Source: Bosea sp. (in: a-proteobacteria) (GTDB lineage Bacteria > Pseudomonadota > Alphaproteobacteria > Rhizobiales > Beijerinckiaceae). From it: a stretch of DNA of 64,000 bases. Of the stretch, positions 8,144 through 22,189 are shown piece by piece. Below the pieces are notes generated by a model. That model made no database searches. It was not told the DNA's origin and saw nothing but the letters and a program-made list of their open reading frames with translations. The translations under genes were made by a program, and so were the position numbers. The stretch lies in contig NZ_JAUYTP010000039.1 in assembly GCF_030695125.1 (NCBI RefSeq), forward strand, positions 259 through 64,258, in the 5' to 3' direction. The stretch's first letter is position 1, and each line of letters opens with the position of its first letter.

Positions 8144-8427
8144 GATGCCAGCATCCTTTCCGAGGCCTTCATCGCCTCGATCTCGGCCTGCGCCTCGCCA
8201 AGCTGGCGCAGGACGTCAAGCGTCAGCGCCGCCTCTTCTTCATTGATCCGGCTCATGGCAAAGCCGACATGGATCAGGGACCAGGTGCCGATCAGCGCTT
8301 CGATCGGCTCGTCTTTCAAGATGCAAGCGACGTTGACCTGACGGCGGACGCCCATCACCTCGACTGTGGCTAGCTTTCGGCGGGCATCCGTGATTTCTAC
8401 GATCCGGCCCGGGATTCCAAGGCACAT
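8140..8427 (-). CDS. hypC: HypC/HupF-type chaperone
   Basis: 95 aa beginning MCLGIPGRIVEI, with the essential Cys2. Confidence 0.9.
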   Translation of the reverse strand: MCLGIPGRIVEITDARRKLATVEVMGVRRQVNVACILKDEPIEALIGTWSLIHVGFAMSRINEEEAALTLDVLRQLGEAQAEIEAMKASERMLAS

Positions 8428-10766
8428 GGGGTGTCCTCCGTTTGGCTGACGGCCAGGGCCACAACGGCCTGGCCAACTGCTAGTCCCCCGTCGTTCGCGG
8501 GGGTTCGGGCGTGGCTGAGAACCGTCAGCCCGCGGGCTTCGAGTCCGTGATGGACCAGCGCGAACAATGTCGCGTTCTGGAACACGCCGCCCGACAGGGC
8601 GACGGTGTCGATGGCGGTATCTTCGGTGATGCGCTCGGCCATCCGCACGACGGCCTGCGCCAGCCCGCGGTGAAAGCGGGCCGCTATGACACCGATCGGG
8701 GTGGCTAGGATCAGATCGCCGAGCATTGCCCGCCAGACCGCCAGCGGCTCAATATAGGGAATGCCCTTGCCCCCCGTCAGCGGAATGCTGAACGGATAGG
8801 CCATGTCGTCAGGCTCTGCCATCGCGGCGGCGTCGATCGCGGCCTCGAAGCGCATGGCGGCCTCGCCCTCGTAATCCTGCGCCTCCCAGGCCAGGCCCGC
8901 GATGGCGGCGGCCGCATCGAAGAGTCGCCCGCAGGAGGTCGACACCGGCGCATTCGTGCCACGCGCGATCATCGCATCCAGAGTCGCGCGCGGCGCCGCG
9001 GAAAGCCTGCGGAAGATCTCGAGCCCGTCGAAATTCATCGCGAATTCGGCCCAGCCCATTTCCGCCATCAGATGCGCATAGGCGTTGCGCCAGGGCTCAC
9101 GGATCGCTGCTGCCCCGCCGGGCAGTGCCACCGGCTTGCACGATCCGACCCGCGCATAGCGCCGATAATCGCAGACCAGAAACTCGCCGCCCCAGAGCGT
9201 GCCGTTATCGCCAAGGCCGCTGCCGTCAAGAGCGATGCCAAGGACCGGGCGCGCATCCAACGGGCGGCCGTTCTCGGCGAGACAGGCGGCGACATGGGCG
9301 TGATGGTGCTGCACCGCGATCACCGGACGACCGCCGGCCAGCGCCCGCCCGGCCTGGGTGGACAGGTATTGCGGATGCAGGTCGACCGCGATCACGCTCG
9401 GCGCATGGTCGAACAGCCGGGTGTAGAGTGCCAGGTTCCGCGCGGCGTCGGCATGGGTGGCGGCATCCTCGAGATCACCCATGTGCTGCGATAGGATCGC
9501 TTGGCCGTCCTTGACGAGGCAGAAGGTGTTCTTCAGCTCTCCGCCCATCGCCAGCACCTGCGCCGCGCGCGAAAAGCCGGGCGGCAGTGGCAGGCCAGTC
9601 GGAGCAAAGCCGCGTGCCCGGCGCAGCACGCGCATCCGGCCAAGGTCCACCCGCACCACAGAATCGTCGATGCGGTTGGCGATCTCGCGGTCGTGCAGGC
9701 AGGCAAAGTCGGCAATGGCGGACAGCCGGTCGCGGGTTTCCTGATTGCCAATACATTGAGGCTGGCCTGAAGGATTGCCGCTGGTCATCACCACGGGGCG
9801 GCCGATGCGGCGCAGGATCAGGTGATAGAACGGCGTGTAAGGCAGCATCACCCCAAGCCGGTCCAGCCCCGGCGCGATGGCCCCGGGCAGGGCGTTCGGC
9901 AACGATTTGAGGAGCACGATCGGCGCTTCGGGGCCGGACAGGGCTGCGGCCTCGGCCTCGGAAACCTGGCAGAATTCGCGAACCACGCCCAGGTCGCGGG
10001 CCATCAGCGCAAAGGCCTTGCCATTGCGCCCCTTGCGGCGGCGCAGTTCGGCGACGGCGGCGGCATTGGTTGCATCGCAAGCCAGGTGTACGCCGCCCAG
10101 GCCGCGGATCGCGACGATATGGCCGTTCAGGATCATGCCGCCAGTGGCGTCGATGTCATCGAGCATCGAAAAGGCTTCGTGGTTGACCGCGCCGGGGCCC
10201 AGCTTCTCGATCCAGATCTGCGGGCCGCAGCGGCCGCAGGCGACCGGCTGGGCATGAAAACGCCGGTCGGTGGGGTCGGCATATTCTCCCGCGCAGATCT
10301 CGCACAGGTCAAACGGGGCCATCGTCGTCCGGGCTCGGTCATAGGGCGCCCCGGTCACGATGGAAAAGCGAGGGCCGCAATTGGTGCAATTGGTGAAGGG
10401 ATAGCGGTAGCGGTGCTGGAACGGATCGCGGATCTCCGCCAGACAATCGGGGCAGGTCGCGGCATCGGGCGTCACCGAGCCGCGCATCGTACCGAGCGCC
10501 TCCGAAGCGACGATGGCAAAACCCAAAGGCGGCGCATCGTCCAGGGGCTCGACGCGCAGCTCCTCGATCCGGGCCAGCGCCGGTAGGGCGGCGTGCAGCC
10601 GGCCCGGAAAGCTGTCCAGCCCCTCGCCCCAGAGCCGGATCACCACGCCCTCGGCGGTGTTCTTCACGTCACCCGCCAGCCCCATCTCGCGCGCCAGCCG
10701 CCAGACCGTGGGCCGGAAGCCCACGCCCTGGACCTGCCCGCGCACGGTCAGGCGCGCGCCGGTCAT
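8397..10766 (-). CDS. hypF: HypF carbamoyltransferase
   Basis: The ATG at 10766 overlaps the stop of the upstream NHL gene (ATGA). It has an acylphosphatase domain (VRGQVQGVGFRPTVWRLA), two CxxC-x18-CxxC zinc fingers, and YrdC- and Kae1-like domains. Confidence 0.95.
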   Translation of the reverse strand: MTGARLTVRGQVQGVGFRPTVWRLAREMGLAGDVKNTAEGVVIRLWGEGLDSFPGRLHAALPALARIEELRVEPLDDAPPLGFAIVASEALGTMRGSVTPDAATCPDCLAEIRDPFQHRYRYPFTNCTNCGPRFSIVTGAPYDRARTTMAPFDLCEICAGEYADPTDRRFHAQPVACGRCGPQIWIEKLGPGAVNHEAFSMLDDIDATGGMILNGHIVAIRGLGGVHLACDATNAAAVAELRRRKGRNGKAFALMARDLGVVREFCQVSEAEAAALSGPEAPIVLLKSLPNALPGAIAPGLDRLGVMLPYTPFYHLILRRIGRPVVMTSGNPSGQPQCIGNQETRDRLSAIADFACLHDREIANRIDDSVVRVDLGRMRVLRRARGFAPTGLPLPPGFSRAAQVLAMGGELKNTFCLVKDGQAILSQHMGDLEDAATHADAARNLALYTRLFDHAPSVIAVDLHPQYLSTQAGRALAGGRPVIAVQHHHAHVAACLAENGRPLDARPVLGIALDGSGLGDNGTLWGGEFLVCDYRRYARVGSCKPVALPGGAAAIREPWRNAYAHLMAEMGWAEFAMNFDGLEIFRRLSAAPRATLDAMIARGTNAPVSTSCGRLFDAAAAIAGLAWEAQDYEGEAAMRFEAAIDAAAMAEPDDMAYPFSIPLTGGKGIPYIEPLAVWRAMLGDLILATPIGVIAARFHRGLAQAVVRMAERITEDTAIDTVALSGGVFQNATLFALVHHGLEARGLTVLSHARTPANDGGLAVGQAVVALAVSQTEDTPCALESRAGS

Positions 10767-11941
10767 GGCGCGGATTCCCATATCAGCACGCGGTTGTTGC
10801 CGCTGTCGGCCACGGCGACCGTGCTGCCACGCACCGACAGGCCGTAGGGCCAGCACAGGCTGTCGCGCATGGCCAATCCCCAGCGGTTGTCGCCCTTCGA
10901 GGCGAAATCAGGCTGGCCGGTCAACCAATCGGCCTCGGCCGCAAAGCCGACCCCGGCAAAGCCCAGCAGCCGCGAATTGGCTGTATCCCCGACAATCAGC
11001 CGGTCGCCCAGCACCCCGAGCGCATAGGGCATGTTGACCGCTAGCGACGACGGGTAATAGGCGCCCCGGTTCAGGTCGCAATCAGTCATCCTGGCCTGGC
11101 CTACGAGGGAATCGGCAGGCTGACCATTGGCTTGGGGAAAGCTGGACCAGACCATGACGCGATTATTGCCCGCATCCGCGACCGCCAGGCCGCCGCGCCA
11201 GCCGGTGGCCATATGGGGCCAACGCATGGAACGCGCCGAGACTGGCCCGCCCGCATTCTCGTCGCGGCAGGTGAAACAGTCCTGACCCAGCGCCAGATCG
11301 GCGGGCTGTCCGGTTTCGACCGGATCGTTCCAGACCAGCAGGCGGCGGTTGCCGGTGTCGCAGACGACTAGCCTGCCGTCGATCTCGGACAGGCCATAGG
11401 GCCAGTGAAGCGTCTGAGGCCCCGGCGCATCCGCGCCGCGATTGGCCAGCGCCGACCCCGCATCGGCCTGACCAAGCACGATGTCGGCCGGGCTTTCCGG
11501 GCCCTCGGGCAGGCGGTGCCAGATCAGCACCCGGTGGTTCCAGGCATCCGCCACCGCCAGGCCGCCGCGAAAGGCGGTGATGCCGGTCGGCACGTTCAGC
11601 GTGGCGGCGGTCACCGGCCCCTTGGCATTGCGCCCCTCGCGGCCAAAGGCGGGCTGGCCGAACAGGATATCGGCCGGCTGGTCGTCGCGGTCCGGCAGCT
11701 TGCGCCAGCCCAGCAGCCGATGGTGCCCGGTATCGGCGACCCAGAACGAGCCGTCGGGATGCAGGCAGACGCCACGCGGCCCGAACAGGCGATGCGCAGC
11801 CGGGGTAATCGGGTCGGCCAGCAGCCCGCCATCCGATCCCAAGATCACCTGCGCGCCCGACGGGTCGAGAAGCGGAGGGCCTTTTGTCACCGTGCCCTCG
11901 GCCTTGATCGGCGCAAACGAGGGCGCGAGCGAAACCTTCAT
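10763..11941 (-). CDS. NHL-repeat beta-propeller protein
   Basis: About 6 repeats of the form D..N+R+L+W.......PAD..LGQ, for example NHRVLIWHRLPEGPESPADIVLGQ, GNRRLLVWNDPVETGQPADLALGQ and GNNRVMVWSSFPQANGQPADSLVGQ. Start MKVSL at 11941 overlaps the upstream stop (ATGA). Confidence 0.8.
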   Translation of the reverse strand: MKVSLAPSFAPIKAEGTVTKGPPLLDPSGAQVILGSDGGLLADPITPAAHRLFGPRGVCLHPDGSFWVADTGHHRLLGWRKLPDRDDQPADILFGQPAFGREGRNAKGPVTAATLNVPTGITAFRGGLAVADAWNHRVLIWHRLPEGPESPADIVLGQADAGSALANRGADAPGPQTLHWPYGLSEIDGRLVVCDTGNRRLLVWNDPVETGQPADLALGQDCFTCRDENAGGPVSARSMRWPHMATGWRGGLAVADAGNNRVMVWSSFPQANGQPADSLVGQARMTDCDLNRGAYYPSSLAVNMPYALGVLGDRLIVGDTANSRLLGFAGVGFAAEADWLTGQPDFASKGDNRWGLAMRDSLCWPYGLSVRGSTVAVADSGNNRVLIWESAP

Positions 11942-12810
11942 GGCACGATCCTGACCTGGATGTGCGAGCCGATGACCCGCACCGCATGGGCGTGCAACTG
12001 CACCTCGGGCGCGGTCAGGCACTCGCCACTTTCCAGCGCATAGCGGAAACCATGCCAAGGGCAGGTCAGGATGCCCGCCTCGACGGCACCCTCGGTCATC
12101 TCGAGCCCCATGTGCGCGCAGGCGTTGCGAAAACAGGTCACCAGATCGCCCTGCCGCGCAAAGATCACCGATTCGCCGCCGACGGTCTCGAACAGCGTTG
12201 TACCATCCGGCAGCTTCGCCAGATTGAGCGCGTTGATCCAGCTGCCCCCCAGCGTCTCGGCAAAGGGCGAGGTGAAATGCACCGTGTCGGCACCACCGCC
12301 GCCCAACCCCTTGACCTGGCGCACTTCGGTGATCTCGGGCACATGATCCTCGATCGCCTTCTTGACGCCGGCATAGAACGTGAGTTGCGAGGCCGGGCAG
12401 CCGTCGCAGGCACCCAGAAAGCGGATCTCGGCGCGGTTGCCCTCGACCGAGGCGACCTCGGCATTGCCGCCGTGGCTGGCCAGCATCGGGCGCACCGTTT
12501 CCAGCGCGGCCTCGACCCGTTCATGCAGCGACGGCTTTAGGATACCGTGCCGGCGCAGGACGGCATAGACGACTTCGTCGCGCGCCGCATCGACCAGCGC
12601 CTTGCCAAAGCCGTCGTGGGACTTCAGCGTGCTGATCATTCGCCGGAACGCTTCGGCGTTCAGCGCGTCGATTGCTGCAGCCTGCGCCGTGGCCCCAATC
12701 CGCGCCGCATCGTCCCAGCCCTCGGCCAGCGCCTTGAGCGCATTGAGATCGCCCAAGAGCCGGTCGAGGCCGGGTCGATCACTGTGCTCGGGGGCGCCGC
12801 TGTCAGGCAT
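11938..12810 (-). CDS. NifU(Nfu)-domain / Rieske [2Fe-2S] fusion protein (HucE/HhyE-like)
   Basis: The Nfu-type motif is FLGACDGCPASQLT. The Rieske motifs are CAHMG and CPWHGFRY. From memory, this architecture matches the putative Fe-S proteins required for mycobacterial Huc/Hhy activity. Confidence 0.8.
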   Translation of the reverse strand: MPDSGAPEHSDRPGLDRLLGDLNALKALAEGWDDAARIGATAQAAAIDALNAEAFRRMISTLKSHDGFGKALVDAARDEVVYAVLRRHGILKPSLHERVEAALETVRPMLASHGGNAEVASVEGNRAEIRFLGACDGCPASQLTFYAGVKKAIEDHVPEITEVRQVKGLGGGGADTVHFTSPFAETLGGSWINALNLAKLPDGTTLFETVGGESVIFARQGDLVTCFRNACAHMGLEMTEGAVEAGILTCPWHGFRYALESGECLTAPEVQLHAHAVRVIGSHIQVRIVP

Positions 12811-12814
12811 CAGA

Positions 12815-13036
12815 TCACGCGTACTTCACGTTCTTGAGGAGGAAAGGCTGGATCAGTCCGGTCACGCCTCCCGCAGCAAGTGCCGCCGCCCAGATGGGGG
12901 CGATTTGACCGACCCCGACGCCGACAACGATTCCCGCAAGGGAACCGAGAGTAAACTGGAGGATCACCTGTCCATTGTTCTTGAACAATTTCCCGGTGAA
13001 GAAGAGCTTCGCAGAATTCATAGCCATGGCGAACAT
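12815..13036 (-). CDS. Small hydrophobic protein (73 aa)
   Basis: SD GAGGGAGGA precedes the ATG. It has a Gly/Ala/Val-rich TM segment (LAGIVVGVGVGQIAPIWAAALAAGGVTGLI) and sits in an operon-like position. Confidence 0.5.
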   Translation of the reverse strand: MFAMAMNSAKLFFTGKLFKNNGQVILQFTLGSLAGIVVGVGVGQIAPIWAAALAAGGVTGLIQPFLLKNVKYA

Positions 13037-13049
13037 GTGCGGTCCTCCC

Positions 13050-13235
13050 TCAGGTCAGCGACAAAACGACGACGGTCGCGACGACGGCCGCCCCACCGGC
13101 GATTGCACCGTAAAGGCCGCCCATATAGGCGGCGAGTTCGGTTCCAAGTGCTGACTTTCCGACCGCGACACCGCCCACGGCTCCAGTAAGCAGCGCAGCG
13201 AGGCATCCTGTGGCCAATGCAGCAAATATGATCAA
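13050..13235 (-). CDS. Small glycine-zipper membrane protein (61 aa)
   Basis: TTG start behind SD GAAGGAG. The sequence MIIFAALATGCLAALLTGAVGGVAVGK...GGLYGAIAGGAAVVATVVVL has two GxxxG-rich TMs. Confidence 0.5.
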   Translation of the reverse strand: MIIFAALATGCLAALLTGAVGGVAVGKSALGTELAAYMGGLYGAIAGGAAVVATVVVLSLT

Positions 13236-13270
13236 GCGATGGTCTCCTTCTTCGAGTTTGTTCGGTGTGG

Positions 13271-14272
13271 TCAGTGCATGGCGTTGGGCGCAAACGCACC
13301 GTGGGGAGCGAGGTGCGACGAAAGTTCGGCAATCGCCTCGGCGACCGCCTGCGCCTTGTCCTCGACCCCGCGGGCGGCAAATATGCCCTTGGCCTCGCGC
13401 AGCAGGGCCACCGCCGCCGCAACGTTGCGCGGGTTTCCCGCCTCGGGGTTCGCCGGATCGTCGGGCAGGTTCGCCATGCAGTTCGCCTTGTTGGCGATGG
13501 TGTTGGCATAGGCCTCGGGCATGTCGCGAAAAGTGCGAACCTTCAGCGCCTCGTCATAGGCATCGAGCGCGCGAAAGCCGTTCTCGACCCGGTGCGCCGA
13601 AGACACATATTGCAGCGCATTGCCGAGGTTGTTCTGGAGCATCGCATACTCGACCGGCTGGTCGATCAATGTAACGACACGCAGCGCTTCCTCGAATGCC
13701 TGAACAGCCAACGCCTCGCGCAATTTGCCCGACTCGTCGGTAAACGGCATCGACAGGAAGGCCGTGGCCAGATTGTTCTGCAGGATAGCGAATTCCTTGG
13801 GAAAGGCGGTCCGGTCAAAGGTACGCAGGGCACGCTGATAGGCGCTAATCGCAGGCTGGATCGGGGCAAGTCCCATCCCCGCCATCGTCTGGCAGATCAG
13901 CCCGAGGTTCATTTCGGCCTCGGCGATCTCGGCATCCGAGCCCTCTGCCGTCAGAGTTGCAATGGCGGTCGTCATCTCCAACCGCGCCGCCTTGATCGCC
14001 TCTGCGTCGCTGCCAGGCACTGCCATCAGCGCGGTCGAAAGCCGCGCACGAATGCGCGCGGCACCCAGAGCTTCGTTTGGCGGCACCAGAGCGATCGCCC
14101 GGCGATAAAGATCGACGGCCGCGCGCAGATCCTCAGGGTCGCGCGGGGCCTGTTGCAGGCCCATCGCAATTTCCATCAGCATCTGTGCCTTGTCGGAGTC
14201 AGATGCGTCTGCGTCCTCGACCGCCGCAAGCGCCGCGTCGACCTGTTGCTTCGTGCGGCTTGATGCGCCCAA
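13271..14272 (-). CDS. TPR-like all-helical protein (333 aa)
   Basis: TTG start behind SD AGGGAGGA. It has repeated helical-pair motifs (A..LY+RAI.L, LQNNLATAF, LQNNLGNAL, AYANTIANKANCM) and sits inside the hydrogenase accessory operon. Confidence 0.6.
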   Translation of the reverse strand: MGASSRTKQQVDAALAAVEDADASDSDKAQMLMEIAMGLQQAPRDPEDLRAAVDLYRRAIALVPPNEALGAARIRARLSTALMAVPGSDAEAIKAARLEMTTAIATLTAEGSDAEIAEAEMNLGLICQTMAGMGLAPIQPAISAYQRALRTFDRTAFPKEFAILQNNLATAFLSMPFTDESGKLREALAVQAFEEALRVVTLIDQPVEYAMLQNNLGNALQYVSSAHRVENGFRALDAYDEALKVRTFRDMPEAYANTIANKANCMANLPDDPANPEAGNPRNVAAAVALLREAKGIFAARGVEDKAQAVAEAIAELSSHLAPHGAFAPNAMH

Positions 14273-14354
14273 CGAGTCCTCCCTGCGCGACTCTGACGGT
14301 CGCGTTATCCCTGATCACCCTAGAGCATCAACGCTCGACCGTCTACTTTCTTTC

Positions 14355-14681
14355 TTACTTGTAAACTAACTTTGCTAAGTCGCCGGGGATCGGAGCGCAG
14401 AGGGCGCACATCTCAGAATTCCAATGTACCGGTAAGTCGGACACCGCCATGGCGAGCAGCCCATGGGCCTGAAATACGTCGCGCGCCTGCGCGACGCGGT
14501 CGCCGGCGGCGTTGCGCTGTTTAAGCAAGCAGCCTCCGGCCGTCGCATGATGCACCGGCAGAACCATCAGCGTCTGGTCCCGGATCAGGACCACAACCGC
14601 CGCGACACCCTGCAGATAGGTCTCGACAACCGGCGCCGGCAGATAGACAGACCCGTCACGGACGGCGATGCCACTGCTCAT
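14355..14681 (-). CDS. Hypothetical protein (108 aa) of the hydrogenase accessory operon
   Basis: The ATG at 14681 overlaps the protease stop (ATGA). I recognise no motifs. Confidence 0.55.
   Translation of the reverse strand: MSSGIAVRDGSVYLPAPVVETYLQGVAAVVVLIRDQTLMVLPVHHATAGGCLLKQRNAAGDRVAQARDVFQAHGLLAMAVSDLPVHWNSEMCALCAPIPGDLAKLVYK
14361..14375. promoter_or_regulatory. 15-bp dyad gtaaactaactttgc (copy 2 of a recurring motif)
   Basis: An inverted repeat, GTAAAC-TAA-CTTTGC, in an AT-rich patch. It overlaps the last codons of ORF 14355-14681 and lies about 90 nt upstream of the TPR-like gene. Confidence 0.35.
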
Positions 14682-15163
14682 GTCGAAGCCCAGTGTCGCA
14701 ACAGGGTGGTCACCTTGTTTGCGACAAGCTCGACTGCCGTGGAGACTGTAGGGCTGAGAGACAAGCCAAGCGCGAGTGTCTCTGCCTCGATCAGGAAGAC
14801 CGTTACGTGCGCGGGAAACGCATCGCCATAGATGCGCTGCCCGGCATAGATCGCGTTGTCCCAGCGAAATTCGTGCAGGCCTGCTCCGCGCGCCGATGGT
14901 GCTGCAAGAACTTCGCCCGGTACTTCGTAGACCGAACCTGGTGTTCCCATGGGAACCCGAGCGTCCACAATCAGCAGATGGGTGGCGCCCCGCGCTTTGT
15001 AAATTACGGCCATACCGTCGGTGCCAACGTCAAACAGGCGAACAGACGCTGGCAACTGGCGGTTGCGAAGCAACTCGATCACCGCGGGGCCCGCCCCATC
15101 ATCGCTGCGGTTCGGATTTCCGCAGCCCAGGACGACGATTTGCTGTCCGATCAAATCCGCCAT
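14678..15163 (-). CDS. Hydrogenase maturation endopeptidase (HupD/HyaD/HupW family)
   Basis: IVVLGCGNPNRSDDGAG and HLLIVDA resemble the conserved GxGN..xDDG and D motifs. The large subunit has a 16-aa tail after the terminal His that would need cleavage. The start is ambiguous (15163 or 15178). Confidence 0.85.
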   Translation of the reverse strand: MADLIGQQIVVLGCGNPNRSDDGAGPAVIELLRNRQLPASVRLFDVGTDGMAVIYKARGATHLLIVDARVPMGTPGSVYEVPGEVLAAPSARGAGLHEFRWDNAIYAGQRIYGDAFPAHVTVFLIEAETLALGLSLSPTVSTAVELVANKVTTLLRHWAST

Positions 15164-15465
15164 AACCTGCAGGACCATGCGGGCTCGACCGGAAGCATCA
15201 GTTCGGGAAGATCGCAGCATCTGGCGTGGACTTTGTAATACATGCAGGTCTCGCAGGGTTGCGGCATGCCCTCAGCTTCAATCGTGTGGTCGGTAAAGCC
15301 TGCAATGATCAGCTTCTTGTCGAGGTCGTCGCCGGCTTCGAGCTGAAGCCGGTTGACGATGGCATTGACCTCTTCGCTTGTTTCGGCCCGTGGCCAGACT
15401 TCGGTCTGCAGCCCCGCCGAGAGGCGGTCGGCGATTGAGCGACGCAAGGCATCCATGTCCATCAT
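15151..15465 (-). CDS. HiPIP-like four-Cys protein, paralogue B (104 aa)
   Basis: The C-terminus is CETCMYYKVHARCCDLPELMLPVEPAWSCRLWRI. There is no signal peptide. SD GAAGGT. Confidence 0.65.
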   Translation of the reverse strand: MMDMDALRRSIADRLSAGLQTEVWPRAETSEEVNAIVNRLQLEAGDDLDKKLIIAGFTDHTIEAEGMPQPCETCMYYKVHARCCDLPELMLPVEPAWSCRLWRI

Positions 15466-15475
15466 GCGTGGACCT

Positions 15476-15862
15476 TCATATGCGCCAGAGCCTGCACCAC
15501 CAGTCCGGCTTGGCAGGCAAGTTGAGTTCAGGCAGATCGCACCAGCGCCGGTGCACTAGATAGTACATGCACTCCTGACAGCGCATCCGGTCCGGTCCGT
15601 AAGGCTCCAGAAGCCAGCCCGAGATCACCAGTTTCTGGCGCAGATCGTCCGCGCTCAGCGGCCGCAGGATGTCCAGTAGTTTCCCGAACTCGCGGTCGGT
15701 TTCAGGGAACGGGCTGACCTCGGTCACAAGCCCATCCTCGAATATATCCTCGATCATGCGAAGCAACATATCATGGTCCGCATCAGCCGGAGAAAGGCCG
15801 TAGCGGTCCGTGAAGTATTTCGTATCCCGTGCCGTGGCGACGGCATCTTTGTTTTCGCTCAT
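15476..15862 (-). CDS. HiPIP-like four-Cys protein, paralogue A (128 aa)
   Basis: The C-terminus CQECMYYLVHRRWCDLPELNLPAKPDWWCRLWRI has spacing C-x2-C-x9-C-x14-C with an aromatic residue before the last Cys. There is no signal peptide. SD GGGGAGG. Confidence 0.65.
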   Translation of the reverse strand: MSENKDAVATARDTKYFTDRYGLSPADADHDMLLRMIEDIFEDGLVTEVSPFPETDREFGKLLDILRPLSADDLRQKLVISGWLLEPYGPDRMRCQECMYYLVHRRWCDLPELNLPAKPDWWCRLWRI

Positions 15863-15890
15863 GACGGCCTCCCCACCGGTGTGCGTTTCT

Positions 15891-15928
15891 CCCGAAGCAA
15901 TTCCGCTGTAAGGCGAGATTGCTTCGGG
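15891..15928 (-). promoter_or_regulatory. Intercistronic stem-loop after hupL
   Basis: cccgaagcaat (15891-15901) pairs with attgcttcggg (15918-15928): an 11-bp stem and 16-nt loop with no U-tract. It may be an mRNA-stabilising or partial-termination element. Confidence 0.35.
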
Positions 15929-15937
15929 GTAGATGGG

Positions 15938-17545
15938 TCAGGCGGTCCGGAAGCGGGCCATCTCCTCGCCGGTGTCGCCGTCATGCGCATGCACGGTGCA
16001 GACGAGGCAGCTGTCATAGGACCGGCAAACGTGGCCGACCTCGACCGGATCATGCTTGTTCTTGATCGGGGTTCCGAGCAAGGCCTCTTCGATCGGGCCG
16101 CGCTGGCCGTCGGCGGAACGCGGGCCAACGTTCCAGGTCGTCGGTGCGATGATCTGGTAGTTCGCGATCTTGCCGTTCTTGACTTCGATCCAGTGGCACA
16201 GAGCGCCACGGATCGCTTCGGTGGCACCCCACCCCTTGCCGTCCCGTTCAGTCGGCTTGATGTACCACTCGTCGTTCAGGCGGAACTCGCGCAGGATACG
16301 CTCCGCCTCGCGATAGAGGATGCACAGTTCGTGCATCCGCGCGAAGTGTCGCAGCATGATCGAGGCACCGCCCATCTTGCGGTACATGTCGAGCACGAGA
16401 CCATCTGAATGCTGGAATGCCTGCCCGGTCGTGTTTCCAGCGATCAGACGCCGTGCCAGCGGACCGGCCTCCAGCGCGCCGCTCTCGGCGTGCCGCACGG
16501 CGGTACCCCAGGAGTATTTTCCATTCGTATCGACGGTATTTTTGGCGATCGGCTTGGTGGTACGGTCGAAAGGATGAACGGCGCTCTTGCCTTCGTCATA
16601 CCAGGCATGGGTCGTATCTTCGCGGGTGAAGATGTGCTCCATCGGGCCGAAGCTGTCGGTGGCACCGTCATAGGTACCGGCCTTCATGATCACCGCACCT
16701 GAGCGGCTGTCTATTGTCGGCTTGTTGTACTTGTCTTCATGCGGCAGGTAGCCCCAAGTCACGAACCTGCCGTGGCCCTTGCCATAGTGTTGCAGTCCGA
16801 TCTCCTTCGACATGCGCCAGAACAGGCCCAAGTCCGAATTGGCATGTTTCGGGCTTTCGTCCAGCCAGGCCTCGAACTGCTCGAGGGTCTGGATCTGTTC
16901 GTAGCGCTCCATCGAACAGCCGAGCCAGAGCGGTTCGATCCAGTTCTGGCGGAAATGCTCGAGAATCGCCCAGGCGCGCGTCACGTCGGTCAGGGTGGGG
17001 GCACACATCACGCCGCCCGGCACCATGAAGGAGGAATGCGGCCACTGACCGCCCAAGAGCGCGTAGATCTCAACCGGACGGCCCGAGATCGTCACGCCAG
17101 CCTCATAGGAGGTGCCGGTGAAGGGCGAATAGCGCTTGACCGCTTCTTCGTAGAACGGGCTCGCCGCATAGTTGGCGTTGGTGTAGTCGATCATGAAGAG
17201 TCCGTAGTGGTGGCGCGGCAGCGATTGCAGCGACTCCACGATCTGGCCGAGGTTGCGTGCAAGGATCGCGTTACGCGGCACGGTCGTGCCCCAGGCGGTG
17301 TCAAGCGCCCAGGCGGCGCAGGTCAGGTGCGAGGCGCCGCAGATGCCGCAAGCGCGCGGTGTCACCACGAGCCCGGCCTGCGGGTCCTTGTCCTTCAGGA
17401 TCACCTCGAAGCCGCGGAACAGTTCCGCATGCGTCCAAGCATTGGTCACCACACCGTCCTGGATATCAACGCGCACGTCGAGATCGCCTTCGACGCGGCC
17501 GACCGGAGAGATGTCGAGAGTCTCGACGCTGGATAGTGCTGTCAT
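15938..17545 (-). CDS. hupL: [NiFe]-hydrogenase large subunit, probably group 2a
   Basis: 535 aa. The N-terminal motif is RACGICGASH (C66, C69). The C-terminal motif is DSCLVCTVH, followed by a 16-aa cleavable tail. GRVEGDL lies near the N-terminus. Confidence 0.9.
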   Translation of the reverse strand: MTALSSVETLDISPVGRVEGDLDVRVDIQDGVVTNAWTHAELFRGFEVILKDKDPQAGLVVTPRACGICGASHLTCAAWALDTAWGTTVPRNAILARNLGQIVESLQSLPRHHYGLFMIDYTNANYAASPFYEEAVKRYSPFTGTSYEAGVTISGRPVEIYALLGGQWPHSSFMVPGGVMCAPTLTDVTRAWAILEHFRQNWIEPLWLGCSMERYEQIQTLEQFEAWLDESPKHANSDLGLFWRMSKEIGLQHYGKGHGRFVTWGYLPHEDKYNKPTIDSRSGAVIMKAGTYDGATDSFGPMEHIFTREDTTHAWYDEGKSAVHPFDRTTKPIAKNTVDTNGKYSWGTAVRHAESGALEAGPLARRLIAGNTTGQAFQHSDGLVLDMYRKMGGASIMLRHFARMHELCILYREAERILREFRLNDEWYIKPTERDGKGWGATEAIRGALCHWIEVKNGKIANYQIIAPTTWNVGPRSADGQRGPIEEALLGTPIKNKHDPVEVGHVCRSYDSCLVCTVHAHDGDTGEEMARFRTA

Positions 17546-17570
17546 TTTCTTGGTTCCTCCCTGAACGGAT

Positions 17571-18533
17571 TTAAACGACGAAGATGTCTTCTTCCGCCCA
17601 AGCGGGGGCCATGCCCTTGGCGGCGGCGGTCAGCTTGATGTATCCGACCTTGTCGACGCCCGTAGGCATGTCCTTGGGCACACCCATGACCGTCTGGGTC
17701 TTGAAGACGGTGCCAGGGCTCAGATCGAAGAAGGGGAACTCAGGTTCCGTGCAGCCGAGGCAAGGCATGCCGGCCCGTGTCTTCGACGAGTGGCGGTTCC
17801 AGAGGATGCGATTGCAGGGGCTGTGCGTCATCGGGCCGCGGCAGCCCAGATCGTAGAACAGGCAGCCCTTGCGCTGCCCGAAGGCTGTGGTCGAGACCTT
17901 GTAGGCGAAATGCATGTTGCGGGTGCAACCGGTCTGCGTGAAGGACGAGAAGAACGTCTTCGGCCGGTGGAACTCGTCAAGGGTCAGATCGCCCGCACGC
18001 CCCGTTGCGACCGCAACCAGAATCTGCGTGACCCAGTCGGGATGCGCCGGGCAACCCGGGATGTTGATGACCGGAAGGCCCGACTTCGCCTTGAAGTTGG
18101 TGCCGAGCGAGCCGCCTTTGGCACGCTTGAGGAATTGCAGGCCGACGCTTTCGGACGGGTTCGGCGCCATCGCTGGGATGCCGCCATAGGTGGCGCAGTC
18201 GCCGATCGCGACGACGAAATCCGCCGCTGCCGACAGTTCCTTGACCCACTCCTTCATCGGGCGGCCGCAGAAGCGGTTCCACTCGCCGGTGCCATTGGGC
18301 GCGTTCACGACGGTGCCCTCGAACACGAAGATGTCGAGCTTGATCTCGCCCGAGATGCATTTCTTCAGGATGGTCTTGACGTCTTCGCCAAGCTCCAGCC
18401 CAAGCGAGGGCTGCCACAAGATGTTGATGCCGAAATCGGTCACAAGGTCACACGCGCTCGGTTCCTCGGCATTGAGGAACGACATCGTGTTCCCCGAGCA
18501 CGCACCACCTTGCAGCCAAAGTAGATTGGCCAT
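17571..18533 (-). CDS. hupS: [NiFe]-hydrogenase small subunit without Tat signal, probably group 2a
   Basis: 320 aa starting MANLLWLQGGACSGNTMSF, with no RRxF twin-arginine leader. Fe-S ligand motifs are GDCATYGG, PGCPAHP, QTGC, GCLFYDLGC, SPC and PCLGC. Confidence 0.9.
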   Translation of the reverse strand: MANLLWLQGGACSGNTMSFLNAEEPSACDLVTDFGINILWQPSLGLELGEDVKTILKKCISGEIKLDIFVFEGTVVNAPNGTGEWNRFCGRPMKEWVKELSAAADFVVAIGDCATYGGIPAMAPNPSESVGLQFLKRAKGGSLGTNFKAKSGLPVINIPGCPAHPDWVTQILVAVATGRAGDLTLDEFHRPKTFFSSFTQTGCTRNMHFAYKVSTTAFGQRKGCLFYDLGCRGPMTHSPCNRILWNRHSSKTRAGMPCLGCTEPEFPFFDLSPGTVFKTQTVMGVPKDMPTGVDKVGYIKLTAAAKGMAPAWAEEDIFVV

Positions 18534-18620
18534 TTTCTTCCTCCCTCTCGTTGAGCTGCCTTGGCCCCCCAGCCAAGGGTAGCGACCCGATCGACTCTTG
18601 TGAGGGTCGATCCTGAGACG

Positions 18621-18636
18621 GGCAGGATATCGGCCA
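18621..18636 (-). promoter_or_regulatory. Weak candidate sigma-54 (-24/-12) promoter for hupS
   Basis: The minus strand reads TGGCCGATATCCTGCC. GG and GC are spaced as in the consensus TGGCACG-N4-TTGCW. It lies about 90 nt upstream of the hupS ATG and about 70 nt downstream of the dyad at 18702. Confidence 0.3.
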
Positions 18637-18701
18637 TAGCGCGCAACTCGAAATCAACTTGCGCCCTGAAAAGGTGGAATCTATGAAACAAATTGCATAC
18701 T

Positions 18702-18716
18702 GCAAACTTAGTTTGC
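18702..18716. promoter_or_regulatory. Perfect 15-bp palindrome gcaaacttagtttgc (copy 1), candidate activator-binding site
   Basis: A 7-1-7 perfect inverted repeat in the AT-rich spacer between the regulator operon and hupS. Confidence 0.4.
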
Positions 18717-18733
18717 TGTTTTGACAGCCGGTT

Positions 18734-18973
18734 TCAGCGGCGGCCGCCGAAAGATGGGCAGCGCGATTCTCCCAAGTGACGGTACCAGACCCCGACGCAA
18801 TGGTTGCACCAGCGTCCCTTCGGGTTCATCGCGACGGCTCCAAGTGTCTCGGACAGTGGGGCCAAGCCTAAGTTTTTGAATGGAGCCTGCGATTTTGGCC
18901 AACGCTTGCTCGGATCCGGAAAGGCAACGACATTAAACCGAGAGGGGTCATCAGAACCGCTTTCCTCTGTCAT
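18734..18973 (-). CDS. Possible 79-aa Cys/His-containing protein translationally coupled to the regulator
   Basis: The ATG at 18973 overlaps the regulator stop (ATGA). Translation is MTEESGSDDPSRFNVVAFPDPSK...RWCNHCVGVWYRHLGESRCPSFGGRR. GC3 is lower than in neighbouring genes, so it is uncertain. Confidence 0.35.
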   Translation of the reverse strand: MTEESGSDDPSRFNVVAFPDPSKRWPKSQAPFKNLGLAPLSETLGAVAMNPKGRWCNHCVGVWYRHLGESRCPSFGGRR

Positions 18974-20421
18974 GCCCGTCGCTTGCGCTGGATATCGTAA
19001 CGCTTGATCTTGTTGGCGAGTCCTACGCGCGACAGCCCCAGGTCGGCGGCAACCTTGCTCTGGTTCCATTGGTGGCGGTCCAGAGCGCGCTCTACCACTG
19101 ACCGCTCCACTCGTTCGACAATATCTTTGAGGCTACCTTCTGAAATCAGTGCAGACAATTTGTCGCGATCATACACTGGAGTTTTGGAAATTTTGTCGGA
19201 GAGGTGCCGGAAGGCGATGTAGCCGCCCTGCTCGGCTACCGCGACCATGCGCTGAACTTCGGTCTCGAGTTCGCGGACGTTGCCGGGAAAGGGATAGGCC
19301 TCCAGCCGCTGCAAGGCGTCCGCCGTGATCCCAAGTACATTCCGGCCGACGACACCCGCATATTTCTCGACGAAGAAGCGCGTCAGTACGGGGATATCTT
19401 CGGGGCGCTCGGCCAGCGATGGAACATTCAATTGGAAGCCTCGCAGACGGTAGTAAAGGTCGCGCCGGAAGCTGCCCTTCTCGACCAACCGTTCCAACCG
19501 CTTGTTCGACGCTGCGATGATGCGGACATCGCTGTGCAGCATGGTATCCGAACCTAGGGGCTTCACCTCACCCTCCTGCAGAAAGCGCAGTAGCGCGATC
19601 TGGAACTGGGGCGATATGTCGGACACCTCGTCGAGCAGGATAGTGCCGCCATCGGCCGCACGAAACAGCCCCAGTCGGTCCGAGATTGCGCCGGGAAAGG
19701 CCCCGCGGACATGCCCGAAAAGTTCGGAGTGCAGCACGTTCTCCGCGATGCCGCCGCAGTTCTGCACCAGCATCGCCGACTTGCGCCGCGGCGAATTGAA
19801 ATGGATCGCGCGGGCTAACAGCTCCTTGCCCGTGCCGGTCTCGCCCTGGATCAGCACCGGCATGTTGGTCTTAGCGGCCATCTGCGCTTCGGAGACCAGT
19901 TCGGCCATCTTCGGGCTGAGGAAGACCAGCCGCTCGAACTGCGAATAGCCACCCTGGACAAAGCTTTCCTTCACTCCGTGGAAGATGTCGTCGTCGAGTG
20001 ACAGCTTTAGCTCGCGACTCAGGATACGGTGACGCCGCGACAGTTCGACATGTTCAAGCGCCCGCTTCGCAACAAGGCTAAGCTGCATCGCCTCTACCGG
20101 CTTGAACAGAAACAGGTACGAAGCCGTCCGGTTAGCCAGTTCGTGGCCGGATCTGACCTTTTCGTGGTCAAGAAGGAGGATGCGCGTACAGGAGGTATGC
20201 GCCAAGCGTGACCGCAACAGCGCGCTTTCGTCCTGGGAAACTTCGTCGCAGCAGTCGTAAAGAAAGAGATTCACGTTCACTTCTTCAAGCCTGCGGATCG
20301 CTGACCTGTCGTCCTCGCTGAAAATGAGACGGTATCCGTCGGCCTCGCTGAGCGCGCGCGAGACCCCTTCAAGAACGGCGGCGTCGGTAGACTTCACCAG
20401 AACCGTCTGAAATGTGGCCAA
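18970..20421 (-). CDS. NtrC-family response-regulator-type enhancer-binding protein (HoxA/HupR-like)
   Basis: AAA+ core with GETGTGKE, GAFPGA (a variant of GAFTGA) and ESELFGH-like motifs. The C-terminal Fis-type HTH is QSKVAADLGLSRVGLANKIKRY. The N-terminal receiver-like domain has LFLYD and a KP motif. The likely start is the TTG at 20421 behind GGAG; the track start is 20439. Confidence 0.85.
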   Translation of the reverse strand: MATFQTVLVKSTDAAVLEGVSRALSEADGYRLIFSEDDRSAIRRLEEVNVNLFLYDCCDEVSQDESALLRSRLAHTSCTRILLLDHEKVRSGHELANRTASYLFLFKPVEAMQLSLVAKRALEHVELSRRHRILSRELKLSLDDDIFHGVKESFVQGGYSQFERLVFLSPKMAELVSEAQMAAKTNMPVLIQGETGTGKELLARAIHFNSPRRKSAMLVQNCGGIAENVLHSELFGHVRGAFPGAISDRLGLFRAADGGTILLDEVSDISPQFQIALLRFLQEGEVKPLGSDTMLHSDVRIIAASNKRLERLVEKGSFRRDLYYRLRGFQLNVPSLAERPEDIPVLTRFFVEKYAGVVGRNVLGITADALQRLEAYPFPGNVRELETEVQRMVAVAEQGGYIAFRHLSDKISKTPVYDRDKLSALISEGSLKDIVERVERSVVERALDRHQWNQSKVAADLGLSRVGLANKIKRYDIQRKRRA

Positions 20422-20443
20422 ATCAGTTCTCCGTCGCAAAACT

Positions 20444-20458
20444 GCAAAGCAACTTTAC
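20444..20458. promoter_or_regulatory. 15-bp dyad gcaaagcaactttac (copy 3)
   Basis: GCAAAG-CAA-CTTTAC lies about 23 nt upstream of the regulator start. With flanks it matches the 18702 site at 17 of 22 positions (TTTGCnGTTTTG). It overlaps the end of the adjacent transposase remnant, so an IS-end origin is possible. Confidence 0.3.
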
Positions 20459-21010
20459 GTTCTGTCCGCAGACTTCTCAAGCCCAGCTGCAGACAACCCC
20501 TGAAGAAGCCCCGATTGGTCGGACATGTCCTCCTTGGTTGTGCGGTCTGCGATGAACTCTAGCGGTGAACGGTATCCCAGCCCCTTATGCGGGTGAAGCC
20601 GGGTGTAGTGATCGAACCATGCTCGCAGCTGACGCATGACGATTTTGGCGTTGGGCAGCGGATTGACCCCTGGCTCAGTGCCTGATGGTTTGAACGAAAT
20701 CCTCGACCATGCCGTTGGATTGCGGGCTCTGGACCAGTGTCGTCGGCAGTTCGAAGCCAATCTCACGCGCGAAGCGTCGGGTTTTCCCTCGGCAAGCCTC
20801 GTTCGGGGCGGCCTGGGCAAATTCACAAGCTGATCTACCGGGTCATGCAGGCCCGCAGCCTGCTCTCCTGCGATGTCGCAGCGACCGCCTGATGCTGGAT
20901 CGAGTGAAGTCGACCGTCTTCGTCGATGCCCAGCGAAACCACGTTGATCGTATCGGGCCGGCGGACTTGGGAGAACATATGCTGTCGCGTCAGCCCCAGC
21001 CGGACAGAGC
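20455..21010 (-). pseudogene. DDE (rve/integrase-core) transposase remnant, frameshifted
   Basis: Fragments in different frames: ...FAREIGFELPTTLVQSPQSNGMVEDFVQT... and ...LPNAKIVMRQLRAWFDHYTRLHPHKGLGYRSPLEFI. No intact N-terminus is present. Confidence 0.65.
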
Positions 21011-21013
21011 ACT

Positions 21014-21647
21014 CTAACGCGAGCGAGCCATCACAGGCAGGGAGAGCTGATGCTGCGGGCGTAAGCCGGAGCCGAACCCGCGGCCGACATAAGGCGAAAC
21101 GACCCGGACATTCTCGCTCGACAGCCCGAAGACACGGGGTGCCGCCAGCTCTACGCACATGTCGGAGGGGTGCGTCGCGATGCAGTACTCGCTTGCGCCC
21201 AGAATGGTGTGGATGCGGTTCAGCCCGCCGATCGCCGAACAGCCCGAGCCGGGCTCGCGCTTGTTGCAGGGCGTGGCGGCATCGTTGAAATAATAGCAGC
21301 AGCGCGTGCGCTGGTTCAGATTGCCGCCGGTCGTGGCCGCATTGCGCAGCTGCGGCGTCGCGCCGGCCAGGATCGCACTGGCGAGCAACGGAAAGCGCGC
21401 GGCGACGCGCTCGTCTTAGGCGACCATGGTGTTGGAGACGAGCGCGCCTATCCGCAGAGACCGGTTCTGCCTCTCCGCGATGCCCTGAGCCCCACGATGC
21501 GCGTCACGTCGATGGCTGCTCGACGTCGTATTTCATCGGGTCGACGAGTTTGGTGCCGCCGGCGATGAGGCGCGCGCTGGACTCCGCGGAAAGCGCCCTG
21601 ATCGCATCGTCGACGGTGTCGGCGCGGTGATAGGAAAAGCGGTTCAT
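21014..21647 (-). pseudogene. Xanthine-dehydrogenase/CoxM-family FAD subunit fused by deletion to a Moco-subunit fragment; frameshifted
   Basis: The N-terminus MNRFSYHRADTVDDAIRAL..LIAGGTKLVD stops at 21504. The next piece reads [20 protein letters not shown]...ATHPSDM and then jumps into [15 protein letters not shown], a large-subunit motif. It is truncated at the IS remnant. Confidence 0.6.
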
Positions 21648-22153: not shown

Positions 22154-22189
22154 GAAAACCCATTCGTGTGACAATCTGCGAATTGCTGC

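Follow-up and report, generated by a model that had tools for sequence, protein, structure and literature searches.

Many aerobic bacteria use group 2a [NiFe]-hydrogenases to take up H2 from the atmosphere and from sea water. To our knowledge, the mycobacterial enzyme is the only one whose electron route to the respiratory chain has been established; it involves HucM and menaquinone. The proteobacterial enzymes are approximately 70% identical to Huc and have neither HucM nor cytochrome b. Two small genes of the hydrogenase locus of Bosea sp., here called A and B, encode a pair of probable Fe-S proteins within the hydrogenase operon and are a testable candidate for the missing link. The window (the whole stretch of 64,000 nucleotides that was analysed) contains the following genes in and around the operon.

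18970..20439, minus strand: sigma-54-dependent activator, upstream of hupS (Pfam Sigma54_activat, E 2e-60, and HTH_8).
17571..18533, minus strand: hupS/hucS, group 2a [NiFe]-hydrogenase small subunit without a Tat signal (Pfam Oxidored_q6 and NiFe_hyd_SSU_C).
15938..17545, minus strand: hupL (Pfam NiFeSe_Hases; best PDB match the Huc subunit HucL, 7uus/7utd, E 6e-177, versus 4e-60 for the next PDB match).
15476..15862, minus strand: gene A, an acidic, cytoplasmic protein of 128 aa with a helical N-terminal part and the motif C95-x2-C98-x9-C108-x14-C123-RLWRI at its extreme C-terminus (ORF and translation).
15151..15465, minus strand: gene B, a 104-aa paralogue of A and the minimal form of the family, with the motif cysteines C71, C74, C84 and C99 (ORF and translation).
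14678..15220, minus strand: maturation endopeptidase of the HupD/HupW type (TIGR00072, E 2.9e-34; Pfam HycI).
14355..14681, minus strand: o108, a conserved ORF of 108 aa after the protease gene, without a Pfam or NCBIfam family (tblastn match in every locus that reaches this far).
13271..14272, minus strand: TPR-like protein of 333 aa (weak TPR matches, conserved synteny), counterpart of cyanobacterial alr0691 (PMC2408588).
13050..13235, minus strand: small hydrophobic ORF of 61 aa (ORF translation).
12815..13036, minus strand: m73, a small membrane protein of 73 aa conserved in the loci (ORF translation).
11938..12810, minus strand: HucE-like protein with a NifU domain (Pfam, E 4e-21) and a Rieske [2Fe-2S] domain (E 1e-14).
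10763..12058, minus strand: NHL-repeat protein (Pfam NHL, E 2.4e-24; conserved synteny), with a true start probably later than that of the longest ORF.
8397..10856, minus strand: hypF (synteny), with hypD, hypE and hypB downstream (Pfam HypD, AIRS and cobW).

HupS aligns over its whole length with HucS of M. smegmatis (7uur, E 3e-159), the alignment beginning at residue 2, and HupL is likewise collinear with HucL; since the closest solved relative of the hydrogenase is Huc, it is assigned to group 2a. The longest ORF of the protease overlaps the 3′ end of B by 70 nt, but its true start is probably further downstream because the TIGR00072 alignment begins at residue 29. The 61-aa ORF probably encodes one of the pair of small membrane proteins known from group 2a clusters, by analogy with Sphingopyxis alaskensis, which has two small hypothetical genes at the matching position, and with the 2-TM proteins asr0689 and asr0690 of cyanobacteria (PMC2408588). 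The plasmid of S. alaskensis also carries a sigma-54 activator gene upstream of hucS; matches to the sigma-54 promoter consensus, with up to two mismatches allowed, were no more frequent than in shuffled sequence. The scanned ORFs of the hydrogenase cluster included no cytochrome b gene.

The original prediction described A and B as tandem paralogues between hupL and the maturation protease, sharing a near-identical C-terminal block. Both minus-strand ORFs (128 and 104 aa) are present, their translations contain the C-terminal strings exactly as quoted, the gene order is as described, and a sequence identity of 47% over 102 aa (BLASTP, E 1e-28) bears out the paralogy, which extends along their whole common length and not only the C-terminus. 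The spacing C-x2-C-x9-C-x14-C had been given correctly for both proteins, each of which ends with it followed by RLWRI. The aromatic residue placed immediately before the last cysteine is found in A (WWC) but not in B (WSC); the invariant tryptophan is at position -2. The proteins were rightly taken to be cytoplasmic: neither has a signal peptide, a hydrophobic N-terminal stretch or a transmembrane helix (the highest 15-residue Kyte-Doolittle mean is 0.8), and no h-region comes after the RR in B. The predicted acidic and helical character of the N-terminal parts also agrees with the isoelectric points of the whole proteins (4.80 for A, 4.7 for B) and with the helices predicted by AlphaFold. 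Neither protein matched any family in Pfam or NCBIfam, and searches of PDB sequences with A, B and an 11-sequence profile gave chance matches or nothing.

There are 890 homologues of A, all annotated as hypothetical, and 401 of B. The family comprises 149 clusters at 50% identity, with the same annotation everywhere; neither Pfam nor NCBIfam has a model for it, and literature searches on group 2a or Huc genes and on HiPIPs together with hydrogenases found no description of the A and B genes. The family unit is approximately 100 aa long, is encoded with group 2a hydrogenase genes and ends in C-x2-C-[IM]-[YF]-x6-[WFY]-C-x-L-P-E-L-x-[LVI]-P-x4-W-x-C-[RK]-L-W-[RK]-x-COOH. In 90 diverse members, the four cysteines and Trp97 are invariant and the four-cysteine motif is always the extreme C-terminus. 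The cysteines are accompanied by a conserved aromatic shell, consisting of Y/F after the second cysteine, W/F before the third, the invariant W97, and W at C+3.

The association with hydrogenase genes is tight and specific, in support of the original prediction: the order hupS-hupL-A is kept in all 80 genome loci examined. B, the protease, o108, the TPR protein, m73, HucE, the NHL protein and hypF follow A wherever the contig is long enough, except at two loci (L045 and L055) in which A is present and B is absent. Metagenome loci recovered with the alignment of a longer form of the protein include Huc-like hydrogenase or hyp genes in 21 of 35 cases, the remainder being mostly short contigs. 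One locus (L087) has the order hupS-hupL-short-long-protease; therefore, a pair of such domains after hupL recurs. A and B are best explained as members of a small, undescribed family dedicated to proteobacterial Huc-type (group 2a) [NiFe]-hydrogenases. Cyanobacterial group 2a clusters as described list only 2-TM, TPR, NifU and NHL genes (PMC2408588), and the described mycobacterial cluster has HucM without A or B (PMC10017518), so A and B are a lineage-specific add-on outside the universal accessory set. The placement of HucM at this same position in mycobacteria, as given in the original prediction, was wrong: its gene in M. smegmatis is upstream of hucS and not between hucL and the protease gene (PMC10017518). 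Equivalence of A and B to HucM by gene position is rejected accordingly, the gene upstream of hupS in Bosea sp. being that of the sigma-54 activator.

The cysteine pattern had been likened to the [4Fe-4S] ligands of high-potential iron-sulfur proteins (HiPIPs), and three independent tests, consistent but weak in their support, allow A and B to be called HiPIP-like in the sense of a remote resemblance. When the family was aligned by hhalign with 125 true HiPIPs, the four ligand cysteines and the tryptophan at C+3 fell in register, pairing the motif with Cys43, Cys46, Cys63 and Cys77 of the A. vinosum HiPIP. The score of 18.8 (P 0.007) was reached by none of 300 column shuffles (mean 10.0, sd 2.4); the hhalign probability of the match was 5-7%, and a HiPIP profile of 125 instead of 6 sequences brought no gain, P being 0.007 instead of 0.005. 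The AlphaFold model of B built from a 90-sequence alignment has a pLDDT of 95.2 and a pTM of 0.86 (with a shallow alignment of 11 sequences, the pLDDT of the cysteine region was below 50). The top PDB match of this model in Foldseek, and the sole one with a probability above 0.03, is the HiPIP of R. marinus (3h31), at a non-significant E of 0.33 and a probability of 0.28; the TM scores are 0.32/0.43 (0.43 normalised on the target), with an rmsd of 7.6 Å over 78 columns. The Pfam HIPIP model, one of four families that match more than one of the 90 members, matches two of them at E 0.1 or weaker, below its curated cut-off. None of the three tests passes a family threshold or is significant at the scale of a database (Foldseek E 0.33, Pfam E of at least 0.1, hhalign probability 5-7%).

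HiPIPs (PF01355; A. vinosum 1cku, R. marinus 3h31) resemble A and B in small size, the order C-x2-C...C...C, the aromatic shell and the tryptophan three residues past the last cysteine, but they are periplasmic whereas A and B are cytoplasmic. The second and third cysteines of A and B are separated by 9 residues and the third and fourth by 14, in contrast to 13 for the latter in four of five aligned HiPIPs, and A and B have Trp at -2 where HiPIPs have Gly-Trp at -2/-1. HiPIPs also differ in lacking the conserved acidic N-terminal part of three helices, the coincidence of the motif with the exact C-terminus, and the location of the genes in hydrogenase operons.

The best reading of these observations, offered tentatively, is that A and B are electron-transfer subunits of the hydrogenase. 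Each unit of approximately 100 residues would consist of three acidic helices and an aromatic-rich C-terminal module, in which the four invariant cysteines may hold a [4Fe-4S] cubane wrapped as in a HiPIP. A and B, co-translated with HupS and HupL, would dock on the hydrogenase, take electrons from the distal cluster of HupS and pass them towards the membrane quinone pool, and so might fill the role of cytochrome b in the membrane-bound uptake hydrogenases and of the HucM stalk in mycobacteria. Because the clusters of Huc are high-potential [3Fe-4S] clusters (PMC10017518), a HiPIP-type couple is thermodynamically plausible as an Fe-S acceptor, unlike a low-potential couple of the ferredoxin type. 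In its most specific form, which is rather unlikely to be correct in full, this reading takes A and B to be two cytoplasmic [4Fe-4S] subunits of the HiPIP type that form a heteromer and belong to the proteobacterial Huc-type enzyme itself, where they would prolong its wire of high-potential [3Fe-4S] clusters as far as ubiquinone or a membrane partner. That would make them the first HiPIP-like electron carriers of the cytoplasm, and also the coupling device long sought for group 2a hydrogenases beyond Actinobacteria, with an evolutionary origin separate from both cytochrome b and HucM.

The proposed role as electron acceptor gains new comparative support from relatives of A and B. In one of them (P0250), encoded directly after a [NiFe] small-subunit gene, an N-terminal Ni_hydr_CYTB domain (E 1.6e-13) is fused to the A/B-type domain; the basis for this fusion is one metagenome contig of 3.5 kb and one fragment without a Pfam cytochrome b match. 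At another locus (L113), a long form closes a hupS-hupL-X operon as its third gene, with unrelated genes after it, and long forms are also found after hupL at L100, L101 and L106. The cytochrome b subunits HupC, HyaC and HoxZ (PF01292) are comparable to A and B in that the gene directly follows that of the large subunit and the product is the proposed acceptor of electrons from the small subunit. The hallmarks of Ni_hydr_CYTB are four transmembrane helices and haem-ligating His; A and B, in contrast, are soluble and acidic, with no transmembrane helices, no signature of a haem-binding family and no Pfam Ni_hydr_CYTB match. Several points count against the electron-transfer reading: some long forms (L092) have no hydrogenase gene within 10 kb, one (L090) adjoins a HupUV/HoxJ/HoxA-type cluster for a sensor hydrogenase, the window revealed no membrane protein with which a soluble carrier could pair, and HucE is a prior candidate for the relay. 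The putative iron-sulfur proteins HucE and HhyE, which share gene clusters with A and B, are candidate electron relays of the hydrogenases of groups 2a and 1h (PMC6883350). Their fold and metal motifs are different, A and B having no NifU or Rieske domain, and HucE is common to cyanobacteria and actinobacteria, from which A and B have not been reported.

Possible as well, if doubtful, is that A and B stand outside the working enzyme as maturation or assembly factors, which might supply the unusual Fe-S clusters of HupS, guard them or check them for errors in air, or act as chaperones of HupS and HupL before the complex forms. Such a role would be analogous to that of HupG, HupH and HupJ of the membrane-bound enzymes and of HoxR and HupI, the rubredoxin-type maturation proteins of O2-tolerant membrane-bound hydrogenases. 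Rubredoxins are built around a mononuclear Fe site and two CxxC knuckles. HoxR and HupI are like A and B in being small Cys4 metalloproteins, or candidates for such, whose genes in aerobic uptake hydrogenase loci lie between the structural genes and hyp, but A and B have one CxxC and two single cysteines, and neither the Pfam matches of the window proteins nor the 25 families on the list for the 90 members include a rubredoxin family. The genes lie directly before that of the protease, among presumed maturation genes (TPR, NifU, NHL and hyp), although compact loci have the structural and hyp genes on one strand, so that position by itself cannot tell the two readings apart. A long form is located between hypE and hypA/hypB at several loci of Gammaproteobacteria (L001, L002, L003 and L117), which counts against the electron-transfer reading, since the arrangement suits a maturation factor just as well. 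Against this, fusion to cytochrome b and the last place in hupS-hupL-X operons without adjacent maturation genes would be unusual for a maturation factor. Maturation of the small subunit has been proposed as the function of ORFs of unknown role in the cyanobacterial group 2a clusters (PMC2408588), but one would expect any core step of maturation to occur universally, and the family is apparently absent from the group 2a clusters described in cyanobacteria and mycobacteria (PMC2408588, PMC10017518). If A and B are nevertheless maturation factors, they would represent a new lineage-specific assembly step for an O2-insensitive hydrogenase, relevant to heterologous production.

It is unlikely that structural zinc or some other metal without a redox role occupies the four-cysteine site and that A and B are a scaffold, like HucM, that organises or oligomerises HupSL. 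Zinc modules, too, typically have four invariant cysteines at the end of a protein, the HiPIP match is of weak significance, and the conserved helical N-terminal part is a possible docking element. However, one CxxC and two isolated cysteines, 9 and 14 residues apart, take the place of two knuckles, the conserved aromatic shell fits the environment of a HiPIP cluster, and the best structural neighbour is an Fe-S protein and not a zinc finger. HucM (7utd/7uus), required for linking Huc to the membrane quinone pool, indicates that Huc-type enzymes may need a non-redox scaffold, and it resembles A and B as a small, lineage-specific extra protein of a group 2a hydrogenase (PMC10017518). HucM is a helical scaffold that appears to be free of cysteine and forms a lipid tube, whereas A and B have their four cysteines, and searches of PDB sequences with A, B and the family profile detected no similarity to HucM (MSMEG_2261) or to any Huc chain.

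Still less probable is a function of A and B as regulators that use an Fe-S cluster to sense redox state or O2 and adjust hydrogenase expression or activity accordingly. The sigma-54 activator gene directly upstream of hupS, the long form beside the sensor cluster, and the sigma-70 region 4 or MerR HTH domains carried by single family members are in keeping with regulation, but these HTH fusions are single clusters among the 90 members, A and B themselves have no DNA-binding or signalling domain in the Pfam and NCBIfam scans, and their co-translation with the structural genes at all loci is more in line with a stoichiometric partner than with a regulator.

That A and B are ordinary, merely diverged members of the HiPIP family (PF01355) is scarcely credible and is rejected: the alignment of their cysteines with HiPIP ligands and the HiPIP at the top of the Foldseek matches are outweighed by the lack of a PF01355 match at E ≤ 0.1 in either protein and of any PDB HiPIP at E ≤ 10 with the 11-member profile, by the missing export signal, and by the extra three-helix part, the third spacing of 14 and the tryptophan shifted to -2.

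Cluster look-ups gave a single taxon name for the long forms, Spongiibacteraceae. Sphingopyxis alaskensis RB2256, a cultured strain in which group 2a activity has reportedly been measured before, encodes its A and B proteins (WP_007015745.1 and WP_041384263.1) on a plasmid of 28.5 kb.

From 8397 to 20439 of the window every gene is on the minus strand and packing is tight. The hydrogenase cluster contains, between hupL and the maturation protease gene, two small genes termed A and B:

Minus strand, first part of the cluster: sigma-54 activator, then hupS, hupL, A, B and maturation endopeptidase
15476-15862, minus strand: A, translated ORF of 128 aa
15151-15465, minus strand: B, translated ORF of 104 aa
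Minus strand, middle part, after the endopeptidase: 108-aa ORF, TPR-like protein, two small membrane ORFs
Minus strand, end, after the membrane ORFs: NifU-Rieske protein (HucE-like), NHL-repeat protein, hypF, then hypD, hypE and hypB

The closest solved relative of HupL is HucL of Mycobacterium smegmatis Huc (E 6e-177; runner-up 4e-60), and HupS and HucS align over their full length (E 3e-159); these matches identify the enzyme, by homology, as a cytoplasmic group 2a hydrogenase of the Huc type and a close relative of Huc, in agreement with the original prediction. The two adjacent ORFs of that prediction were found in place with the C-terminal strings quoted for them exact in both, and their paralogy spans the entire common length (47% identity over 102 residues, E 1e-28). 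Both end in C-x2-C-x9-C-x14-C-RLWRI, the cysteine spacing expected; the aromatic residue said to precede the last cysteine is present in A but not in B, the invariant tryptophan being two residues ahead of that cysteine. A and B are acidic (pI 4.8 and 4.7) and a search for a hydrophobic N-terminal segment in either found none, so they are cytoplasmic, as had been proposed from the lack of a signal peptide.

A set of 5.8 billion proteins contains 890 homologues of A and 401 of B; those with a name are all called "hypothetical", and no Pfam domain occurs in any. The family is small: when 1.84 billion cluster representatives were searched with a profile, only 149 matched (107 of them with E <= 1e-10). 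The motif C-x2-C-[IM]-[YF]-x6-[WFY]-C-x-LPEL-x-[LVI]-P-x4-W-x-C-[RK]-LW-[RK]-x is present in all complete members, always as the C-terminal end of the protein, and the four cysteines and Trp97 (B numbering) are invariant in a 90-sequence alignment. This four-Cys unit occurs in three architectures: separate small proteins such as A and B, about 100-130 aa long; long forms of about 330-545 aa, with the unit C-terminal to an uncharacterised region; and one fusion (P0250, 391 aa, metagenome contig JGI 3300075153) to a cytochrome b domain of the Ni_hydr_CYTB family (E 1.6e-13), encoded immediately 3′ of the gene for a 347-aa [NiFe] small subunit. In the long forms (P0244, P0245, P0254, P0275, P0277, P0298 and others), the N-terminal 240-440 residues have no Pfam match and show little conservation (mean column identity 28%). 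In single members (P0260, 150 aa, and one other, in alignment A2) the unit is preceded by an HTH domain, of sigma-70 region 4 type (E 8.5e-11) or of MerR type (E 6.6e-13); these may be true fusions to regulators or artefacts of gene calling.

The proposed linkage to group 2a hupSL was borne out: the order hupS-hupL-A is found at 80 of 80 loci in species-representative genomes of Alphaproteobacteria and a few Gammaproteobacteria. Wherever the contig is long enough, A is followed by B, the protease, the 108-aa ORF, TPR, the 73-aa membrane ORF, HucE, NHL and hypF, the sole exceptions being two loci that lack B (L045 and L055). A long form is 3′ of hupL in L100, L101 and L106, is directly 3′ of hupL as the final gene of the operon in L113, and follows a short form in L087 (hupS-hupL-short-long-protease). 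In L001, L002, L003 and L117, a long form is flanked by hypE and hypA/hypB in a cluster that also has a Huc-like hupL. In L090 (7434-18578), a 446-aa long form adjoins a DUF3422 gene and a sensor-hydrogenase cluster, and in L092 no hydrogenase gene was found within 10 kb of the long form. The L090 cluster encodes a sigma-54 response regulator, a small subunit, an MCP-like protein, a large subunit with 36% identity to HupL and a PAS histidine kinase, and in gene content resembles an H2-sensing regulatory hydrogenase system; DUF3422 is again ahead of a sigma-54 regulator on the Sphingopyxis alaskensis plasmid. A literature search found no mention of genes A and B, which represent a new family, dedicated to hydrogenases, of probable Fe-S proteins.

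The suggested likeness to high-potential iron-sulfur proteins (HiPIPs) stood in part. With the 90-sequence alignment, AlphaFold modelled B with confidence (pLDDT 95.2, pTM 0.86) as three helices that lead into an irregular module at the C-terminus, in keeping with the acidic helical N-terminal part foreseen. The first-ranked Foldseek match to this model among 350,542 PDB chains was the Rhodothermus marinus HiPIP 3h31, but at E 0.33 and probability 0.28 (TM 0.43 on target); the remaining matches were to unrelated large proteins (E > 2.6). Neither A nor B matches PF01355, whereas two of the 90 family members match Pfam HIPIP, at best with E 0.1. Reference HiPIP sequences were compared with the PDB (those of A. 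vinosum and R. fermentans agreed exactly), and 120 true HiPIPs were then gathered for a profile. In hhalign, the four cysteines of the family align with the HiPIP ligands (score 18.8, P 0.007), as does the tryptophan three residues past the last cysteine with a HiPIP tryptophan; none of 300 column-shuffled HiPIP alignments reached this score (mean 10.0, sd 2.4, maximum 18.7). Structure, Pfam and profile comparison are three independent tests, of greater sensitivity than the direct family searches, that point weakly in the same direction, and the modelled C-terminal module resembles a HiPIP cluster cage, by remote homology or convergence. The likeness is confined to the cage: on curated criteria, membership of the HiPIP family was rejected, there being no PF01355 match for A or B and nothing found in PDB sequence searches with A, B or a profile of their own family.

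Whether A and B accept electrons from the hydrogenase, as originally predicted, may be judged from the comparative evidence. An electron-transfer role is favoured by the cytochrome b fusion, by the recurrence of one or two four-Cys units directly 3′ of hupL, by their last place in three-gene structural operons, and by their apparent absence from the universal group 2a accessory set; the cyanobacterial group 2a clusters described in PMC2408588 list only two 2-TM proteins and TPR, NifU and NHL proteins, and mycobacteria have HucM. A lineage-specific module on a nearly invariant catalytic core would be expected where the enzyme connects to a respiratory chain that is itself lineage-specific, and a HiPIP-type couple would fit the wire of high-potential [3Fe-4S] clusters described in Huc (PMC10017518). 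Against this role, long forms lie between hyp genes at several loci, the neighbouring TPR, NifU and NHL genes are often taken to encode small-subunit maturation factors, the fusion is on one short contig only, and no downstream acceptor was found in the window. These points together therefore leave an electron-transfer subunit a tentative reading, held with somewhat less than even confidence; a role in maturation is rather unlikely, a non-redox zinc scaffold improbable, and a regulator very improbable.

Besides HiPIPs, the nearest known counterparts are the HupC/HyaC cytochrome b, HucM and HucE. A and B share with the HupC/HyaC cytochrome b their gene position and the one fusion. HucM, which had been thought to occupy the same position, is encoded upstream of hucS in mycobacteria (PMC10017518); it is analogous to A and B as a lineage-specific component but is unrelated in sequence. 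HucE is co-encoded with A and B and has separately been proposed as a relay. In S. alaskensis RB2256, where group 2a activity has been measured (PMC10305171), the cluster is on a plasmid and A (WP_007015745.1) and B (WP_041384263.1) are annotated as hypothetical; the two genes make the wiring of non-actinobacterial group 2a hydrogenases directly testable in a cultured strain.

The 108-aa ORF (14355-14681, minus strand), directly 3′ of the protease gene, matches no Pfam or NCBIfam family and is kept in every related locus reaching that far. Two small hydrophobic ORFs of 61 and 73 aa (13050-13235 and 12815-13036, minus strand) between the TPR-like and HucE-like genes are possible membrane partners by gene position; S. 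alaskensis has two small hypothetical genes there, and in cyanobacterial group 2a clusters asr0689 and asr0690 are a pair of small 2-TM genes (PMC2408588). Some 85 nt before hupS begins, downstream of the sigma-54 activator gene, TGGCCGATATCCTGC (18622-18636, minus strand) retains GG-N10-GC, the core of a sigma-54 -24/-12 promoter; seen by eye and without statistical support, it has three mismatches to TGGCAC-N5-TTGC and was hence missed by a scan allowing two.

Several observations, on the window, on loci L004, L076 and L080 and on plasmid NC_008036.1, give the cluster the look of a mobile island. The window opens with TniB and Mu-type transposase genes (190-2694), and at about 20455-21012 there is a transposase-like remnant, judged by translation only. 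A contig of Bosea vaviloviae SD260 is similar (97.6% over 13 kb), but the match breaks off at about 20500; between Sphingopyxis sp. H115 and Novosphingobium subterraneum, the loci share 99.96% identity over 16 kb. Plasmids carry the cluster in Sphingopyxis alaskensis, Octadecabacter, Roseovarius, Novosphingobium, Bradyrhizobium and Mesorhizobium. Just past the island boundary (21504-22174, minus strand), ORFs resemble, from their translations only, two subunits of a molybdenum hydroxylase of CoxS/CoxM or xanthine dehydrogenase type, the small [2Fe-2S] one and the FAD-binding one.
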